The notes beneath the pieces were generated by a model. It was not told the origin of the DNA. It searched no databases and saw only the letters and a program-made list of their open reading frames with translations. This document shows positions 15,701 through 23,552 of a stretch of 42,800 nucleotides of DNA, in pieces (the first letter of the stretch is position 1; every line of letters begins with the position of its first letter). The translations under genes and the position numbers were made by a program. This DNA is from Elusimicrobiota bacterium (GTDB taxonomy: Bacteria; Elusimicrobiota; UBA8919): assembly GCA_043816185.1 (NCBI GenBank), contig JBDRIG010000112.1, positions 1 to 42,800 on the forward strand. Direction: 5' to 3'.

Positions 15701-17290
15701 CTACTGAACCGTCTGGAGAATCTTGTCTCTTACGAGATTGTATATTTTGTAAACCTCTTCAAGTTTGAATAGTAAGGACAAGCTAATATAGACAGCCAAA
15801 CCTGTCAAAACGGATAGCGATGTCGCCAATATCTTGTAAATAATAATTCCCTCATTCCATGAATTCAAAAATCTCATTGTTATGACTGCGGTGAACCCTG
15901 AAATCGTGGCAAAAACTGCTATCTTCAAAACATCTTTCAGAATTTCCAAACCGTGAATATTACCGATGGACTTTTTTAGAGCGACGAAAAACATAACAGC
16001 GATAATCAAAATATTGCAAGATGAAGATAAAGCAATGCCCGCAGCCGGAGGATTAAGTAATCTGATGAACAAGATATTTCCGACGACAGTTAGTACAATT
16101 GATATTGCAATAATCTTCAAAATCCGACTATATTCGTTCAGTATAAACAATAATTTCGAAAAAATAATAGCGGCATAATAGGAAAATAGTTGAAACGCAT
16201 AGAAAAAAAGTATTTTTGAAGTAACTTCGGTGGCTTCAGCAGTAAAATTTCCCCTCTGAAATAATATGGAAACTATTTGTTTGGAAAAAAACGCAATCAT
16301 TACGGCTATTGGTATGAAAACAAAAGCTGCCATGCGGATACTTAATGCAAGAGTATTCCTCAATTCCTCTATTTTGTTATTAGAAACTTGAATGGAAAAG
16401 TAAGTATACAAAACTACTGGAAGCGACGATATAAATACCGTCAGGGGCATTTGCACGATTTTTTCTGCATATGTCAGTGCCGTAATGCTACCAGCCGGCA
16501 GAAATGCCGCCATATTCCTGTTAATCAAGATTACTATACTCGGAGCCACTGAAATAATCATAAATGTCAGAATATTCTTGCCCAGTTTATTCCCTTTGAA
16601 ATATTTGGTTTCAAAACTGAAAGTATATCTGAATCCCATCTTTTTCAGAATGTACATCAAAACAAATGTCTGCAATATTATGCCTGCAGTATATCCCCAT
16701 ACTATTGCATAGATATTATGTCCTTTTTGGAACAGAACAACGGAGGCAATAATACCGATTGTTATCATAATCTGCGAAACCGCGGGATAAAAAAATATTT
16801 TATACGCATTCAGCACCGAAGTCAAAATGCCTGAAAACCCCATAAAAACAAGCATTAAACTGAGAATTTTTAAAATTCTTGCTGCTGGCCAAATTATGTT
16901 TTCAGAAAGACCGGAGAACAGAATTCTTATTATCTGTTCCGAAAAAACGAAAGTGATAAGTGAGATGCCAAGAAAAATAACTACGAAGTAATTCATCGCA
17001 GTGCTCGCAATTTTATTTGAGTTGTTAATCCCATCATCAAGTGACTTAATTAACATCGGAATAAAGACAATACTGAATGTAGATAATATTATTCCACCAG
17101 CCATTGTTGGCACAGTGAGTGCTGAATAATAGGAGTCCATAGAAACTCCAATGCCGAAACACTTAGCAACAATGACTTCCTTTAATAAACTTATCAGGTT
17201 AGTAAATATGCTTACAATAACCAAAGATATTGATGCTACTGCAATAGTTTTATTAACAGACAATGTTTTTCCCATCCGATTTCCTTTCAA
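15701..17290 (-). CDS. murJ: MurJ/MviN-family (MOP superfamily) lipid-linked glycan flippase
   Basis: 529-aa ORF with about 14 hydrophobic helices and the N-terminal signature LLKEVIVAKCFGIGVSMDSYYSA. Whether its substrate is lipid II or the locus glycan cannot be told from sequence. Confidence 0.8.
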   Translation of the reverse strand: MKGNRMGKTLSVNKTIAVASISLVIVSIFTNLISLLKEVIVAKCFGIGVSMDSYYSALTVPTMAGGIILSTFSIVFIPMLIKSLDDGINNSNKIASTAMNYFVVIFLGISLITFVFSEQIIRILFSGLSENIIWPAARILKILSLMLVFMGFSGILTSVLNAYKIFFYPAVSQIMITIGIIASVVLFQKGHNIYAIVWGYTAGIILQTFVLMYILKKMGFRYTFSFETKYFKGNKLGKNILTFMIISVAPSIVILINRNMAAFLPAGSITALTYAEKIVQMPLTVFISSLPVVLYTYFSIQVSNNKIEELRNTLALSIRMAAFVFIPIAVMIAFFSKQIVSILFQRGNFTAEATEVTSKILFFYAFQLFSYYAAIIFSKLLFILNEYSRILKIIAISIVLTVVGNILFIRLLNPPAAGIALSSSCNILIIAVMFFVALKKSIGNIHGLEILKDVLKIAVFATISGFTAVITMRFLNSWNEGIIIYKILATSLSVLTGLAVYISLSLLFKLEEVYKIYNLVRDKILQTVQ

Positions 17291-17599
17291 AATATTTTAT
17301 TCCATCAATTCGTCTAATAGTATATAATGAAGAATTCTTTATTTTCGAGATCTTTTTGCCAAAATTTTTCCAATTATCCCAAACAGCACTAATCACTTTG
17401 CCGGTAAGTCCGTTTGAAGCATCTGATGCCAGAAATACCGACAACTCTGCTGCTAATTCTGGAGAAGTTCCGCCTTCCTTTTTTATCAAGTGTTGAACAA
17501 TCTGCCACACAATACATCCCGGACATCTCAGTTATTTTTGCCAACCCAATGCCTAAATGCAATCCAGTAGTAATCACTATAATATCACTTTTTTTTCAT
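17253..17599 (-). pseudogene. Remnant of a short-chain dehydrogenase/reductase (SDR): N-terminal and C-terminal pieces in different frames, with the middle missing
   Basis: The ATG at 17599 overlaps the transketolase TGA as ATGA and is followed by A8 then a stop. With A7 it reads MKKSDIIVITTGLHLGIGLAKI, which contains the TGxxxGxG motif. About 20 codons later, in another frame, it reads CPGCIVWQ...GGTSPELAAELSVFLASDASNGLTGKVI, the SDR PG motif and C-terminal region. About 345 nt remain of what is normally a gene of roughly 750 nt. Confidence 0.65.
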
Positions 17600-18573
17600 A
17601 AAAGTATCTTTTTAATGTAATTAAAAATATTTGTAGAATCCAATTGATTTAATTTATGTAGATATTCTCGGTTGCCGGTCATCAAAACATGAAAGTCGCT
17701 AAATCCAAGTGAATAAACTTGTTGTTTTGAGTTGCTTCGTGCAATAATTGATAATATCAGTGTATCAAGTCCTGCTTTATTAATAAACCCTTCTTCAAGG
17801 GTTAAAATTTTTTCGTATTTTTTCAATGTGTCTAAAAATTTTTTTTCTTCGAAACCATTCAACATAAAAATATCTACTAAACCAATAAAAATATTTTCTT
17901 TTTGAAGCATTTGTACAACTTTCATAGCAGTGTGTGTCATATATCCGGTTGATACAATACACATTTTTTGTCCTTGAAATATCTCTTTATGCCCTTTTTG
18001 AAAGGAAATCTTTTCCATGTCAGAATAAATGTTAGATAACGGTTTACCATCTAAACGAAGATATTTTGGTTTATTTTCTATTAAAGCATAATTCACAAAC
18101 TTTTTGCAGAGAATACAATCGCTCGGCGAAAAAACAGTGATGTTTGGGAATGTTCTCATAATACTGATGTCTTCTAAAGAATGGTGCGAAGGCCCAGAAA
18201 TATCATAACCTAATCCTGCTCCAACACCTATGAGATTTATGTTAATTTTTCTGAATTGGTGCATAAGCGAAACATTATTTCTTATTTGTTCGCATGCTCT
18301 CATTACAAGAAATGGTGCAATCGCATATGCAAACACAGCGAATCCCTCAATTGCAAGTCCGCACGATATATTGATAAGGTTCTGTTCCGCTATGCCTACA
18401 TTTATAAATCTATCCTTGAAGTCATTCCTCAAACGGTCAAGAGATGTCGCTCCGAAATCCGCCGATAGAAAGAAAATATTTTTATCTTTTTTCATTCTGT
18501 GATATATATTTTCTATCAGTACATCTCGCATTGTTTGCATATTGTTATCCGATGTTTGCAATAATTTTGTCAA
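17596..18573 (-). CDS. Transketolase, C-terminal (pyrimidine-binding) subunit of a split transketolase
   Basis: Carries FINVGIAEQNLINISCGLAIEGF and GPSHHSLEDISIMRTFPNITVFSPSD. Confidence 0.9.
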   Translation of the reverse strand: MTKLLQTSDNNMQTMRDVLIENIYHRMKKDKNIFFLSADFGATSLDRLRNDFKDRFINVGIAEQNLINISCGLAIEGFAVFAYAIAPFLVMRACEQIRNNVSLMHQFRKININLIGVGAGLGYDISGPSHHSLEDISIMRTFPNITVFSPSDCILCKKFVNYALIENKPKYLRLDGKPLSNIYSDMEKISFQKGHKEIFQGQKMCIVSTGYMTHTAMKVVQMLQKENIFIGLVDIFMLNGFEEKKFLDTLKKYEKILTLEEGFINKAGLDTLILSIIARSNSKQQVYSLGFSDFHVLMTGNREYLHKLNQLDSTNIFNYIKKILL

Positions 18574-19363
18574 TTTCTTCGCCAGAAATACTTTTAATAT
18601 GGGATAAAGGGTCTGTTTCCAGCGATGGTATTCCTTTGCCTTTTATAGTATCTGCTATTATTACCTTCGGTTGTCCTTTTTTGTTTTTAATTTTTTTGAT
18701 AATTTTTAGGAGCAAATCAATTTTATGTCCATCGACACGTTCCACAAACCATTTGTACTCCACAAACTTTTTTTCAAGTGGTTCTAAGTCAATGATATTT
18801 TTGCAGAAATTCAGCATAGACGCACCGTTATTGTCAATTATGAGTGTAAGATTGTCTAATCTATGTTCACCAGCAAACATTATTGCTTCCCATACAGATC
18901 CCTCAAACAACTCACCATCACCCATAACAACAAAGATATTTTCAGATTTTTTTTGTCTTTTCAGTGCCAATGATATTCCACAGGCAACGCCCAACCCATG
19001 ACCAAGTGAACCGTTTATTGTTTCATATCCCGGTATGCCTGGATCCGGAATACCGCCAAGCAATGCTCCGGTAGTTGCTACTTTTCCAAGTTCTTTTTTA
19101 TTGAAAAAACCGAGATCAGCAAGTATGGGATATAACGAAACAGAACCATGCCCCTTACTTATTATTAATCTATCCCTTTTTTCCCAAAGCGGTTTTTTTG
19201 GATTAAATTTAAAGAGTCCTCCATAGAATAGTGCAACAAAAATTTCTATTGGGGAGAGTGACGAAGCAATCCGTGTTTCCGGAGCAATTTTATGTATTTT
19301 TAAGGTTTCCTTTTTTACCCAACAGGCCTTATTTTTTAAAAGTTCTATATCTGGTAATATCAT
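18545..19363 (-). CDS. Transketolase, N-terminal (ThDP-binding) subunit of a split transketolase
   Basis: Carries SKGHGSVSLYPILADLGF, GSLGHGLGVACGISLA and the ThDP motif VVMGDGELFEGSVWEA...NL..IIDNN. Confidence 0.9.
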   Translation of the reverse strand: MILPDIELLKNKACWVKKETLKIHKIAPETRIASSLSPIEIFVALFYGGLFKFNPKKPLWEKRDRLIISKGHGSVSLYPILADLGFFNKKELGKVATTGALLGGIPDPGIPGYETINGSLGHGLGVACGISLALKRQKKSENIFVVMGDGELFEGSVWEAIMFAGEHRLDNLTLIIDNNGASMLNFCKNIIDLEPLEKKFVEYKWFVERVDGHKIDLLLKIIKKIKNKKGQPKVIIADTIKGKGIPSLETDPLSHIKSISGEEIDKIIANIG

Positions 19364-20348
19364 TTTTGCTTTCTTTCCTTGTGTGTTGCCTACAATATTC
19401 TAAAAGATATTGCACTCTTTCCTTGAAACTGTATTTCGGATGCCAGCCGGTTTGTTTTGTAAATTTTGTCGTATCTGGTATTTGAAGCGTTACATCAGAC
19501 GGACGAAATAATTTTTTCTCGGCTCTTGTCGGAATTTTACATTTTGCAAGTTTTTTCAACTCTTCAAGGAACTCGCCAACCTTTATTATAGTTAAACCAC
19601 CGATATTGTATGCCTCACCAAATTCACATTTTGTTGTTGCAACCCAGTATGATTCCATCGCATCTCTGACATCAATAATTGTTCTTACGGAATCAAGGTT
19701 GCCATGCAATAATTCTTTTTGAAGTCCTGCTTCTATTCTCGCTACTTGCATCGCAAACGATGTTGCAAAAAGATCTACTCTTCTCGGATTGAGATATGCA
19801 AACATTCTTGTCCGTATGATTTTCATTTTATAACTTCTGAAATAAGCATAACCAAGTAAATCCTGTGTCGCTTTTGAGACGGCATATGGGCTTGATGGAT
19901 TTAGAGGACAATCCTCTTTAATTGGTACATTTTTTGAGTCCACCTGTCCATAAACTTCAGATGTACTGCACAACTGAATTATTGGGTTTATTTCTGCGGT
20001 TCTTACCACTTCAAAAAGATTAGCGGTACCCATAATGTTGTTATTTAAAACTGAAAGCGGTGTAATAAATGATGTCCTGACATTTGCATAAGATGCCAGA
20101 TGGAAAATTGCATCTGGTTTAACTTTTTTTAGAACTGAAAAAATGGAAGAAAAATCGGTGAGGTCGCACTCGTGCAAAATAATTTTGTCTATTGATTTGT
20201 CCAGATTTTTATTTGACGATGTGCTATGCCACCGTGAAATTCCATGTATTTCAACCTCCGGGTGATTTTCCGCGATGTAGTCAGCAAGGTAACTCCCACC
20301 TGAGCCGCCTATCCCTGTAATAAGTGCTTTTTTAATTTTTCTTGGCAT
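19329..20348 (-). CDS. NDP-sugar 4,6-dehydratase of the GDP-mannose 4,6-dehydratase (GMD/DmhA-like) type
   Basis: Carries ALITGIGGSGGSYLADYI (Rossmann fold), STSEVYG, the catalytic YAVSKA, and RMFAYLNPRR, which parallels the GMD FNHESPRR region. Confidence 0.75.
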   Translation of the reverse strand: MPRKIKKALITGIGGSGGSYLADYIAENHPEVEIHGISRWHSTSSNKNLDKSIDKIILHECDLTDFSSIFSVLKKVKPDAIFHLASYANVRTSFITPLSVLNNNIMGTANLFEVVRTAEINPIIQLCSTSEVYGQVDSKNVPIKEDCPLNPSSPYAVSKATQDLLGYAYFRSYKMKIIRTRMFAYLNPRRVDLFATSFAMQVARIEAGLQKELLHGNLDSVRTIIDVRDAMESYWVATTKCEFGEAYNIGGLTIIKVGEFLEELKKLAKCKIPTRAEKKLFRPSDVTLQIPDTTKFTKQTGWHPKYSFKERVQYLLEYCRQHTRKESKNDITRYRTFKK

Positions 20349-20373
20349 AACTTTAATTTTCTCACTTTGATCT

Positions 20374-20423
20374 GTAATCGCTGATTTTAATCAGTGCTAA
20401 CGCCAATTAAAATTGGCGATTAC
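20374..20423 (-). other. Compound stem-loop (an outer stem enclosing two hairpins) in a 78-nt intergenic gap
   Basis: The outer stem is gtaatc (20374-20379) with gattac (20418-20423). The inner hairpins are ctgatt-tt-aatcag and gccaatt-aa-aattggc. The element starts 3 nt after the upstream stop codon. Confidence 0.45.
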
Positions 20424-20426
20424 ACA

Positions 20427-21365
20427 TCATGCATTCCCATATTTGGAATTTTTTATTATTTTATATCCTTTGATAAGTTCTTTTATGCCAATATCTAAAG
20501 AAAATTCTGGTTTAAATCCTGTTTTTTCTATTTTTTCGTTTGAGACGATGTAATCTCTTTTGTCGGTATCTTCGCCCACAGGTGCTTCTAAATAAACAAA
20601 ATCAGGAATATGCGTTTTTATTTTTTCGCAGAGTTCAAGTTTTGAGAGATTTGCCTCTGACAAACCAACATTATATGGTTCGTTTTTCATTTTATCAAAA
20701 TTCTCAATTGCGTGTACAAATGCTCGCGCAACATCCTGTATATGTATGAAATTTCTTTTGAAATGCCCTTCAAATAAAACAATAAATCTGTCGTTGACTG
20801 CACGATAGACAAAATCATTAACCATCAAATCTAACCGCATTCTCGACGACATTCCAAATACTGTTGCAAGTCGGAAACTTATTGAGTTTCCTCTGTCAAG
20901 AACAATTTTTTCCGCATCCATTTTTGTTATTCCGTAGAGCGATATCGGGTTAATTGGTGTTTTTTCCGTGCAGAATTTGCCTTTCTGTCCAATTCCATAT
21001 CCACTATTTGTCGTAGGAATTATTATTTTTTGATTTTTACTTATATTGTTCACTATAAATTTTATCGCGTCAGTATTTATGGTTTTTGCTCCTATTTTAT
21101 CGTTATTGCATAAAGACGCACCTACAAGTGCCGATAGTGGTATAAGCATATCGGCAGTTTTAAGGAGTGGCTTAATAATGCTTTCATCACGGACGTCACC
21201 TCGTATAACTTCAAAGTTGTCATTTAAGCAGACATCCGCCAGTGAATTCTGGTTGTACATAAAATTATCAACAACTGTTACTTTATTACCAAGTGTCAAT
21301 AATTTTGGGACCAAAATAGAACCAATGTAACCCGCTCCGCCTGTAATTAAAATTTTATATTTCAT
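20427..21365 (-). CDS. NAD(P)-dependent extended-SDR sugar epimerase/reductase (candidate 4-keto reductase)
   Basis: Carries ILITGGAGYIGSILVPKLL plus YGITKMDAEK (YxxxK). The ORF is 312 aa. Confidence 0.85.
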   Translation of the reverse strand: MKYKILITGGAGYIGSILVPKLLTLGNKVTVVDNFMYNQNSLADVCLNDNFEVIRGDVRDESIIKPLLKTADMLIPLSALVGASLCNNDKIGAKTINTDAIKFIVNNISKNQKIIIPTTNSGYGIGQKGKFCTEKTPINPISLYGITKMDAEKIVLDRGNSISFRLATVFGMSSRMRLDLMVNDFVYRAVNDRFIVLFEGHFKRNFIHIQDVARAFVHAIENFDKMKNEPYNVGLSEANLSKLELCEKIKTHIPDFVYLEAPVGEDTDKRDYIVSNEKIEKTGFKPEFSLDIGIKELIKGYKIIKNSKYGNA

Positions 21366-21378
21366 AATGTTTCTCTCG

Positions 21379-22539
21379 CTAAATTTTTTTCAGCGTTTTG
21401 TGAAGATACTCAATTTTATCCCGTATATCAAAAGGATAATTCCCAACGAAAAACCCGTTGTAATGTGCAGTATCAGCATTTGTTGATTTTGTATAAGTAT
21501 AGTCAAAATATTTTACAACATCGTGCCTGAGCATACATCCACCTGTTATAATTCTGTATTCTATATTTGCTTTTTTTAATTTCTCAAGCACTTTATCGCG
21601 CGATATACCACTTTTTGGATTTACAATCATTGTGAAACAAAACCAGGAGCTTTCTCCGGTTTCCTTTTGTATGATGAACCGTTCATTGTTTCCAAAAAGT
21701 TTTTGGAAATATTTTGCGTTTTCCCTCCGGATTTTTAAGAATTTGTCCAACTTTTTCAGTTGCACTTTTCCTATTGCTCCATGTAGTTCACCAGGCCGAA
21801 CATTGTACCCAGGTAAAATAAACCTATATGCCTCAAAAAAATCATCGTATTTTTTTTTGTATAATCCGCAATTATCAGGCAAACCTCTTGTCCAGCCATG
21901 AGTTCTTAAACATTTTGCCAAGCAATATAATTCTTTGTTGTTCGTTAAAATCAAGCCGCCTTCCATCGTTGAAATATGATGAGAAAAAAATGTGCTGAAT
22001 GTGTTTATAAGTCCAAATGTTCCTGTGTGTTTTCCGTCAAACCTCGCACCCATCGACTCGCAATTATCTTCAAAAAGTATTATATTGTTTTCTTTGCATA
22101 ACCCTGTAATTTCACCAAATTGGCAGGGATTACCGAGGATGTTTACAGCCACAACCATTTTTGTTTTTTTGGTTATTGCATTTTTAAGTTCCTTTGTATC
22201 AATGTTTAGCGTCTGTAAATCAACATCTACGAACTTCATCTTCAGTCCATACTGATGAAGTGGATAATAAGTTGTGCTCCATGAAATGTTTGGAACAATT
22301 ACTTCATCTCCTCGTTTTAATGGGTTTTCTTTACTGTAAAATAAAGAAGCTACTGCTATCAAATTTGCCGACGAACCGGAGTTAACCATGACACAATGTT
22401 TCATACCAAAGTATTTGGCAAATTGTTCCTCGAATTCTTGGACATGCTTGCCCATAGTAAATTGGTCGCTTTTAATAACTTCAAACATCACTTGTTTTTC
22501 TTCTTTTGAAAATGTTGAATAAAGTAGTTCGTATTTCAT
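21379..22539 (-). CDS. PMP-dependent NDP-4-keto-6-deoxy-sugar 3-dehydratase, ColD/E1-like (DegT/DnrJ/EryC1 fold)
   Basis: Carries MVNSGSSANL, VPNISWSTTYYPLHQYGL, FEDNCESMGA, FSTFFSHHISTMEGG, LRTHGWTRGLP and LPGYNVRPGELHGAIG. Residue 188 by my count is His (codon 21976-21978) where aminotransferases carry the Schiff-base Lys. Confidence 0.85.
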   Translation of the reverse strand: MKYELLYSTFSKEEKQVMFEVIKSDQFTMGKHVQEFEEQFAKYFGMKHCVMVNSGSSANLIAVASLFYSKENPLKRGDEVIVPNISWSTTYYPLHQYGLKMKFVDVDLQTLNIDTKELKNAITKKTKMVVAVNILGNPCQFGEITGLCKENNIILFEDNCESMGARFDGKHTGTFGLINTFSTFFSHHISTMEGGLILTNNKELYCLAKCLRTHGWTRGLPDNCGLYKKKYDDFFEAYRFILPGYNVRPGELHGAIGKVQLKKLDKFLKIRRENAKYFQKLFGNNERFIIQKETGESSWFCFTMIVNPKSGISRDKVLEKLKKANIEYRIITGGCMLRHDVVKYFDYTYTKSTNADTAHYNGFFVGNYPFDIRDKIEYLHKTLKKI

Positions 22540-23552
22540 ATATTCTTATCCAAAATATTTTCTGAATCTGGTTTGTAAAAAATTATTTCTGAACCAGAAA
22601 AATCAAATTCAAATGGTATATGAAGAAATTTTTTTAGTACCTTCTTTAATTTTATCTGATTTTCTGGTTCAGCATAAAAAAGCATAAAACCACCACCACC
22701 CGCACCAAGTAATTTTCCTCCGACGGCACCGTTCACTAATGCTGTTTTGTAAATTTCATCTATGGAATCATTGCTTATTTTGGTAGATAAACACTGTTTT
22801 AATTTCCACGTTTCATTGAGTAGCTTCCCGAACAACCCAAAGTCGGGTTTGACAGATGTCACAATATTATATCCGTCATCAACAAGTTTGTTCATTTTGT
22901 GAAGTTCTTTTTCATTTTTACAGGTATTTTTTATTTGTTCTTCCGCTATGTCTGATGCATTACGCGATATCCCTGTGAAAAAAAGCATAAATTTTTTTTC
23001 AAATTTCGCTATGTTTTCTTTTGTCATAATCACAGGTGAAACCACGATTTTACCGTTATGTAAAAAATCGATTTTATTAAATCCGCCCTGTGCAGCAAAA
23101 ACTTGGTCCTGTGAGCCAACATTTTCTTTAATGATATTTTGTTCAACATAGATAGCAAGTTTGAATAATTCGCTTTTTGAGATAATCTTTCCTTCAAGTG
23201 CAAACATTGCTTTTAACAAGCCAACAGTAAAGGCAGAACTTGAACCCATACCAGATTTTGCGGGTATATCGCCGTCGTGGTGAATGGATATACCCTTCTT
23301 ATACCTAAAATATTTTAATACTTCTCTAACAGACGGATGTTTTATTTCGTCTATGGTTTTGGGATTTTCCATCTGTGAGTAGACTATTCGATGTTTGTGT
23401 TCAAAAAAAGGTGGGAGTTCTCTTATTATCAGATAACAATATTTATCTATTGCTGTACCGAGAACCCTACCGTCGTGTTTCAAATACCACAATGGATAAT
23501 CAGTTCCACCGCCAAAAAAAGATATTCTGTGAGGAGTTCTTGTGATAATCAT
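22536..23552 (-). CDS. GHMP-family sugar kinase, D-glycero-D-manno-heptose-7-phosphate kinase (HddA)-like
   Basis: Carries MIITRTPHRISFFGGGTDYPLWY at the N-terminus, the GHMP motif PAKSGMGSSSAFTVGLL, and LLGAGGGGFMLF. Its stop overlaps the downstream ATG as ATGA. Confidence 0.8.
   Translation of the reverse strand: MIITRTPHRISFFGGGTDYPLWYLKHDGRVLGTAIDKYCYLIIRELPPFFEHKHRIVYSQMENPKTIDEIKHPSVREVLKYFRYKKGISIHHDGDIPAKSGMGSSSAFTVGLLKAMFALEGKIISKSELFKLAIYVEQNIIKENVGSQDQVFAAQGGFNKIDFLHNGKIVVSPVIMTKENIAKFEKKFMLFFTGISRNASDIAEEQIKNTCKNEKELHKMNKLVDDGYNIVTSVKPDFGLFGKLLNETWKLKQCLSTKISNDSIDEIYKTALVNGAVGGKLLGAGGGGFMLFYAEPENQIKLKKVLKKFLHIPFEFDFSGSEIIFYKPDSENILDKNI

Follow-up and report, generated by a model that had tools for sequence, protein, structure and literature searches.

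In the yersiniose A pathway, CDP-4-keto-3,6-dideoxy-glucose is processed by YerE and then by YerF, and other YerE-like branching enzymes include ErwE and MMAR_2332 (PMC12247030). Two-subunit (split) transketolases (TKs) are encoded in the miharamycin and amipurimycin clusters beside an oxidoreductase thought to make a keto sugar, with two-carbon addition to the ketone as their proposed reaction (PMC12247030), and 13 Streptomyces split TKs have been listed by Krug et al. (2024). In C. jejuni, the function of the GDP-heptose C4-dehydrogenase Cj1427 has been described, its biochemistry being known only for the C. jejuni enzyme, and Cj1427 with a C3-dehydratase yields GDP-D-glycero-3-deoxy-4-keto-heptose in vitro (PMC10680097). 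Here, we describe a gene cassette that shares features with each of these systems, found in a 42.8-kb stretch of DNA (the window, meaning the whole stretch analysed) whose host genome is probably Elusimicrobiota. The cassette is uncharacterised and occurs across many phyla of uncultured bacteria and in some archaea. Six intact, tightly packed ORFs lie on the minus strand from 23552 to 17596, followed by an SDR pseudogene:

22536-23552, minus strand: GHMP sugar kinase, HddA-like (Pfam GHMP_kinases_N and _C)
21379-22539, minus strand: ColD-type PMP/PLP-dependent sugar-nucleotide 3-dehydratase, predicted (DegT family; ColD similarity, catalytic His)
20427-21365, minus strand: Cj1427-like extended SDR (PDB 6VO6 match)
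19329-20348, minus strand: GMD/DmhA/Rmd-like extended SDR, putative 4,6-dehydratase or 4-reductase (PDB matches 7US5 and 2PK3)
18545-19363, minus strand: transketolase-like ThDP enzyme, N-terminal (PP-domain) subunit, TK-N (Pfam Transketolase_N)
17596-18573, minus strand: transketolase-like ThDP enzyme, C-terminal (Pyr and C-domain) subunit, TK-C (Pfam Transket_pyr and Transketolase_C)
17253-17595, minus strand: apparent pseudogene remnant of a classical adh_short SDR (C-terminal codons, 66% identity to the protein of related locus L088)

The six genes are translationally coupled: three neighbouring pairs overlap, by 4, 35 and 29 nt, and the other two are 13 and 78 nt apart. Each ORF has strong Pfam and NCBIfam matches, is full length relative to its homologs and keeps its catalytic residues. 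An earlier note on this DNA had described consecutive coupled genes for five activities, including a two-subunit transketolase, followed by an SDR remnant, and coordinates, domain matches and junctions agree with that description, as does the whole 42.8-kb window with its statement that no nucleotidyltransferase, GmhA or GmhB gene is present there. Homologs of four C. jejuni capsular GDP-heptose enzymes (HddA, Cj1427, the C4,6-dehydratase and the HS:5 C3-dehydratase) are encoded in the window, whereas the C. jejuni pathways finish with cupin-type epimerases and C4-reductases and include neither a ThDP enzyme nor a B12-radical SAM (B12-rSAM) enzyme.

The GHMP kinase scores 175 bits against the NCBIfam HddA model, which is below the cutoff of 600 although HddA is still the best-scoring family, and its best PDB match is 4N3O, the putative heptose-7-phosphate kinase of C. 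jejuni (170 bits). Among 54 related loci of 15 kb or more, kinase orthologs with 51-67% identity stand beside an HddC-like nucleotidyltransferase in 43, and some of these 54 loci also hold GmhA/GmhB-like genes (SIS in 10, HAD in 8). The window kinase is probably a D-glycero-D-manno-heptose-7-phosphate 1-kinase. Because HddC-, GmhA- and GmhB-like genes adjoin the same cassette in other genomes, a GDP-heptose origin is likely for the sugar of the window pathway, and its activation genes may be located elsewhere in the same genome.

The DegT-family protein matches E. coli O55 ColD (PDB 2GMS) with 442 bits over residues 2-384, at about 57% identity, and keeps the catalytic His of ColD (His188, a position marked by the PDB mutant entries H188K and H188N) in the motif FFSHHISTMEGG, which aligns with FYSHHIATMEGG. 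In each of the three DegT classes linked to the TK cassette, the position of the catalytic Lys is occupied by His. Judged by sequence, the window protein is a ColD ortholog and is predicted to be a GDP-4-keto sugar 3-dehydratase, a 3-dehydratase role having been given to it in the earlier note; the His in place of the Schiff-base Lys and the similarity to ColD speak against a plain aminotransferase. The colitose pathway (Gmd, ColD, ColC) shares this dehydratase with the window, and most related loci add an Fcl/ColC-like SDR. Unlike in colitose synthesis, a heptose is probably the substrate and a Cj1427-type dehydrogenase the source of its 4-keto group in the window pathway, and the cassette has extra ThDP and radical SAM steps.

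The extended SDR at 20427-21365 had been taken for a reductase; its match over the full length (residues 2-311; 385 bits) to PDB 6VO6, the structure of C. jejuni Cj1427, makes it instead a close homolog of the GDP-heptose C4-dehydrogenase. For the GMD-like SDR, the best PDB match is 7US5, a GDP-D-glycero-D-manno-heptose 4,6-dehydratase (181 bits), followed by the Rmd reductase 2PK3 (166 bits), which carries the same STSE and YAVSK (YxxxK) motifs, and the score against NCBIfam gmd is 150 bits with a cutoff of 415. Homologs at 72-85% identity are mostly from Elusimicrobiota, and the gene adjoins the Cj1427-like gene in related loci L086, L087 and L088. With matches about equal, a 4,6-dehydratase and an Rmd-type reductase cannot be told apart here. 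Of the 3,6-dideoxy sugar proposed earlier, the 3-deoxy part is supported by the ColD ortholog, while the 6-deoxy part is unproven because of this ambiguity, and a 3-deoxy sugar with its 6-hydroxyl retained is equally possible. We know of no natural 3-deoxy-heptoses with the 6-hydroxyl retained in C. jejuni. The pairing of a 4-keto-forming enzyme with a 3-dehydratase, also pointed out previously, is conserved across loci and would give the type of substrate that YerE-type enzymes branch.

The split TK matches the two-subunit transketolase of Carboxydothermus hydrogenoformans, with 155 bits for TK-N against PDB 6YAK and 112 bits for TK-C against PDB 6YAJ, and its scores against the NCBIfam transketolase models are far under the cutoffs (197 with a cutoff of 488). 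Residues were compared in E. coli numbering across 82 family members for TK-N and 78 for TK-C. In common with canonical transketolase (EC 2.2.1.1), the window enzyme has the fold, the ThDP/Mg2+ motifs and the activating Glu, and it shares the split architecture of the C. hydrogenoformans enzyme: TK-N keeps the GDG motif, Asp149 (82/82) and equivalents of His66 and His261, and TK-C keeps equivalents of Glu411 (the activating Glu, TK-C Glu63) and His473 (78/78). Five substrate-contacting residues are replaced relative to the canonical enzyme, and the genomic setting is one of sugar-nucleotide modification rather than central metabolism. Arg31 and Ile105 stand in place of the donor C1-OH ligands His26 and His100 in 81/82 TK-N members, and the acceptor/phosphate site of TK-C is lost, with His461 replaced by Gly, Asp469 by Ser or Ala and Arg520 by Gly, Ser or Ala (78/78 each); the Ser385 equivalent is Ser or Ala family-wide. 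The window TK-C has Ala42 (Ser385), Gly118 (His461), Ser126 (Asp469) and Gly176 (Arg520). A TK paralog in related locus L073 still has the canonical His residues, which makes it an internal control for the clade signature. Since the phosphate/acceptor site is lost and the donor His residues are changed, the split TK is, on sequence grounds, a distinct specialised clade and not a pentose-phosphate enzyme; with the sugar-nucleotide context, these changes set it apart from a housekeeping Tkt, the identity that the earlier note had named as fatal to its proposal. In the engineered transketolase TKgst, pyruvate can be the donor only with the H102L substitution, and substitutions at S385, H462 and R521 fit the enzyme for sugars that lack a phosphate (PMC11997939). 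The Arg/Ile signature suggests that the donor is non-hydroxylated.

The yersiniose A pathway and the window have in common a PMP-dependent 3-dehydratase that leads, in the window by prediction, to a 3-deoxy-4-keto sugar nucleotide, a ThDP enzyme in the cluster and then a ketoreductase (PMC12247030), and both lie in a surface-glycan locus. They differ in that yersiniose synthesis uses CDP, a hexose and an E1/E3 dehydratase, whereas the window probably uses GDP, a heptose and a ColD-type dehydratase, and in that the window ketoreductase is an apparent pseudogene. YerE belongs to the single-chain decarboxylase (acetolactate-synthase-like) ThDP superfamily, in contrast to the two-subunit transketolase fold of the window enzyme; a YerE-like (POX/ALS-like) identity is ruled out by the Transketolase_N, Transket_pyr and Transketolase_C domains, leaving the split TK as only a functional analog at most. 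Likeness to the miharamycin/amipurimycin type is one of architecture and gene context, namely a two-subunit TK next to an enzyme making a keto sugar, an arrangement present by gene order in the window and about 80 loci. The Streptomyces-type enzymes, however, lie in actinomycete antibiotic clusters with hydroxyacetyl transfer proposed, while the window clade lies in glycan loci with the Arg/Ile signature for a non-hydroxylated donor. The idea of sugar branching by a split TK is older: it is an undemonstrated proposal for miharamycin and amipurimycin (PMC12247030).

The TK clade is present, at 54-67% identity, in at least 140 of 185,579 species genomes, among them Nitrospirota, Omnitrophota, Elusimicrobiota, Patescibacteria, Planctomycetota, Desulfobacterota, Campylobacterota and the archaeon Methanoperedens, and GDP-heptose cassettes with this clade occur in more than ten phyla, including CPR bacteria. 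In the 54 related loci, the TK pair is accompanied most consistently by the Cj1427-like SDR (47/54), followed by the GHMP kinase (45/54), the HddC-like nucleotidyltransferase (43/54), the His-type DegT dehydratase (at least 42/54) and a B12-rSAM enzyme (41/54), the last directly after TK-C in most loci. Natural fusions of an Fcl-like protein to TK-N (L022) and of a His-type DegT to a Cj1427-like protein (L030 and L046) tie the TK to NDP-sugar enzymes. We regard the window genes as one version of a sugar-nucleotide cassette that is widespread, moves horizontally and modifies a GDP-heptose-type sugar.

We infer the following route, including the heptose used as substrate in this genome, the donor, the position of the new C-C bond and the end product. 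The 4-keto group would be introduced by the Cj1427-like C4-dehydrogenase, and also by the GMD-like SDR if that is a 4,6-dehydratase; the ColD ortholog would then remove the 3-hydroxyl to give GDP-3-deoxy-4-keto-heptose, possibly 3,6-dideoxy. The two-subunit TK-like enzyme would form a ThDP-bound two-carbon carbanion, most likely from a non-hydroxylated 2-oxo acid such as pyruvate, and would join it to the sugar nucleotide, with the C4 ketone as the most likely acceptor. The resulting sugar would carry a C-acetyl branch and a tertiary alcohol, as yersiniose does, and other SDRs would then reduce it. The odds are about even that the pathway involves ThDP-dependent two-carbon addition, probably from pyruvate, to GDP-3-deoxy-4-keto-heptose. 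Several observations count against this reading: transketolases normally take aldehyde acceptors, not ketones; related loci L075, L058 and L039 have only TK-N, TK-C and the rSAM gene, with no deoxy-sugar genes nearby; the route gives no reason for having both a C4-dehydrogenase homolog and a GMD-like SDR in the window; and its one precedent for a keto-sugar-branching TK, in miharamycin and amipurimycin, is itself a proposal (PMC12247030).

Chain extension, in which the TK would add its two-carbon unit to a side-chain aldehyde of the sugar nucleotide (C6/C7, formed by an oxidase or the B12-rSAM enzyme) to give an unbranched C8/C9 sugar, with 3-deoxygenation as separate tailoring, would use a normal acceptor class and suits both the position of the B12-rSAM gene after TK-C in most loci and the minimal TK-N/TK-C/rSAM module of L075. 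The rSAM enzyme weakly matches the AprD4 diol-dehydratase family, among many others. We consider this reading unlikely, as an intact TK occurs in the window without the rSAM gene, a candidate aldehyde-forming enzyme was not found, and the near-universal pairing of a 4-keto-forming SDR with a His-type 3-dehydratase is better suited to a ketone acceptor.

A further question is whether the window copy still makes a complete product. The segment 17274-17486 (minus strand) codes for the C-terminal 72 residues of an SDR of the classical adh_short type with a weak Pfam adh_short_C2 match, 66% identical (E=5e-32) to the full-length 286-aa SDR of the related Methanoperedens cassette L088, a locus that also contains a transaldolase-family gene. 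This full-length protein gives matches to BudC, acetoin reductase and FabG models, and the counterpart in related cassettes is a predicted acetoin-reductase/FabG-like ketoreductase, and a candidate N-terminal Rossmann fragment of about 20 residues lies just past the TK-C stop in a different frame; the remnant looks like an internal-deletion pseudogene. The core B12-rSAM ortholog and the Fcl-like SDR, usual partners in related cassettes, were not found in the 42.8-kb window, and with these partners missing and the ketoreductase a pseudogene, the window copy may be incomplete or have a different end product. The sister Elusimicrobiota locus L086 has GHMP, ColD, Cj1427-like and GMD-like genes 84-91% identical and in the same order, with a PDH-E1-like alpha/beta ThDP enzyme filling the TK slot. 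That this closest relative has another ThDP enzyme there, together with the pseudogene beside TK-C and the absence from the 42.8-kb window of any nucleotidyltransferase, of the core rSAM gene and of an Fcl-like SDR, fits a decaying or rearranged cassette that gained its TK pair by module swapping and is non-functional as a unit, but this is quite unlikely given six full-length, translationally coupled ORFs with catalytic residues kept inside a large, intact glycan locus, and activation genes that may sit elsewhere in the genome. It is highly improbable that the TK is of pentose-phosphate type and makes sedoheptulose-7-phosphate or octulose phosphate for the GmhA/HddA/GmhB/HddC route, rendering the cassette self-sufficient in Patescibacteria or archaea: sedoheptulose-7-phosphate is the GDP-heptose precursor, and the cassette is present in CPR bacteria and in Methanoperedens (L088, with its transaldolase-family gene), but phosphate-binding His461 and Arg520 plus Asp469 (78/78) and donor ligands His26 and His100 (81/82) are replaced, the NCBIfam score is 197 against a cutoff of 488, L022 encodes TK-N as a fusion with an NDP-sugar SDR, and a PDH-E1-like enzyme takes the TK position in L086.

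To our knowledge, YerE-like and E1-like enzymes are the only ones with biochemical proof of ThDP-dependent keto-sugar branching, and for transketolases the reaction has so far been proposed only in a few Streptomyces antibiotic clusters. The large TK clade defined by Arg31, Ile105 and loss of the phosphate site, within GDP-heptose cassettes, is a directly testable candidate for this missing activity. The clade would provide natural templates for TK biocatalysts with pyruvate donors and ketone or non-phosphorylated acceptors, properties that protein engineers pursue by mutating the same positions. In its fullest form, which we put forward tentatively, two-carbon branching would be the work of an ancient two-subunit TK clade re-tooled for pyruvate-like donors and a sugar-nucleotide ketone acceptor (His26 to Arg, His100 to Ile, phosphate site lost), making a 3-deoxy-heptose with an acetyl or hydroxyethyl branch at C4, a "heptose yersiniose" of nine carbons, which would decorate surface glycans across many uncultured bacterial phyla, in CPR bacteria and in Methanoperedens archaea and would often be modified further by a dedicated B12-rSAM enzyme. 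Such cassettes predict that environmental glycans contain 3-deoxy-heptoses, branched or extended, of a class not yet described.

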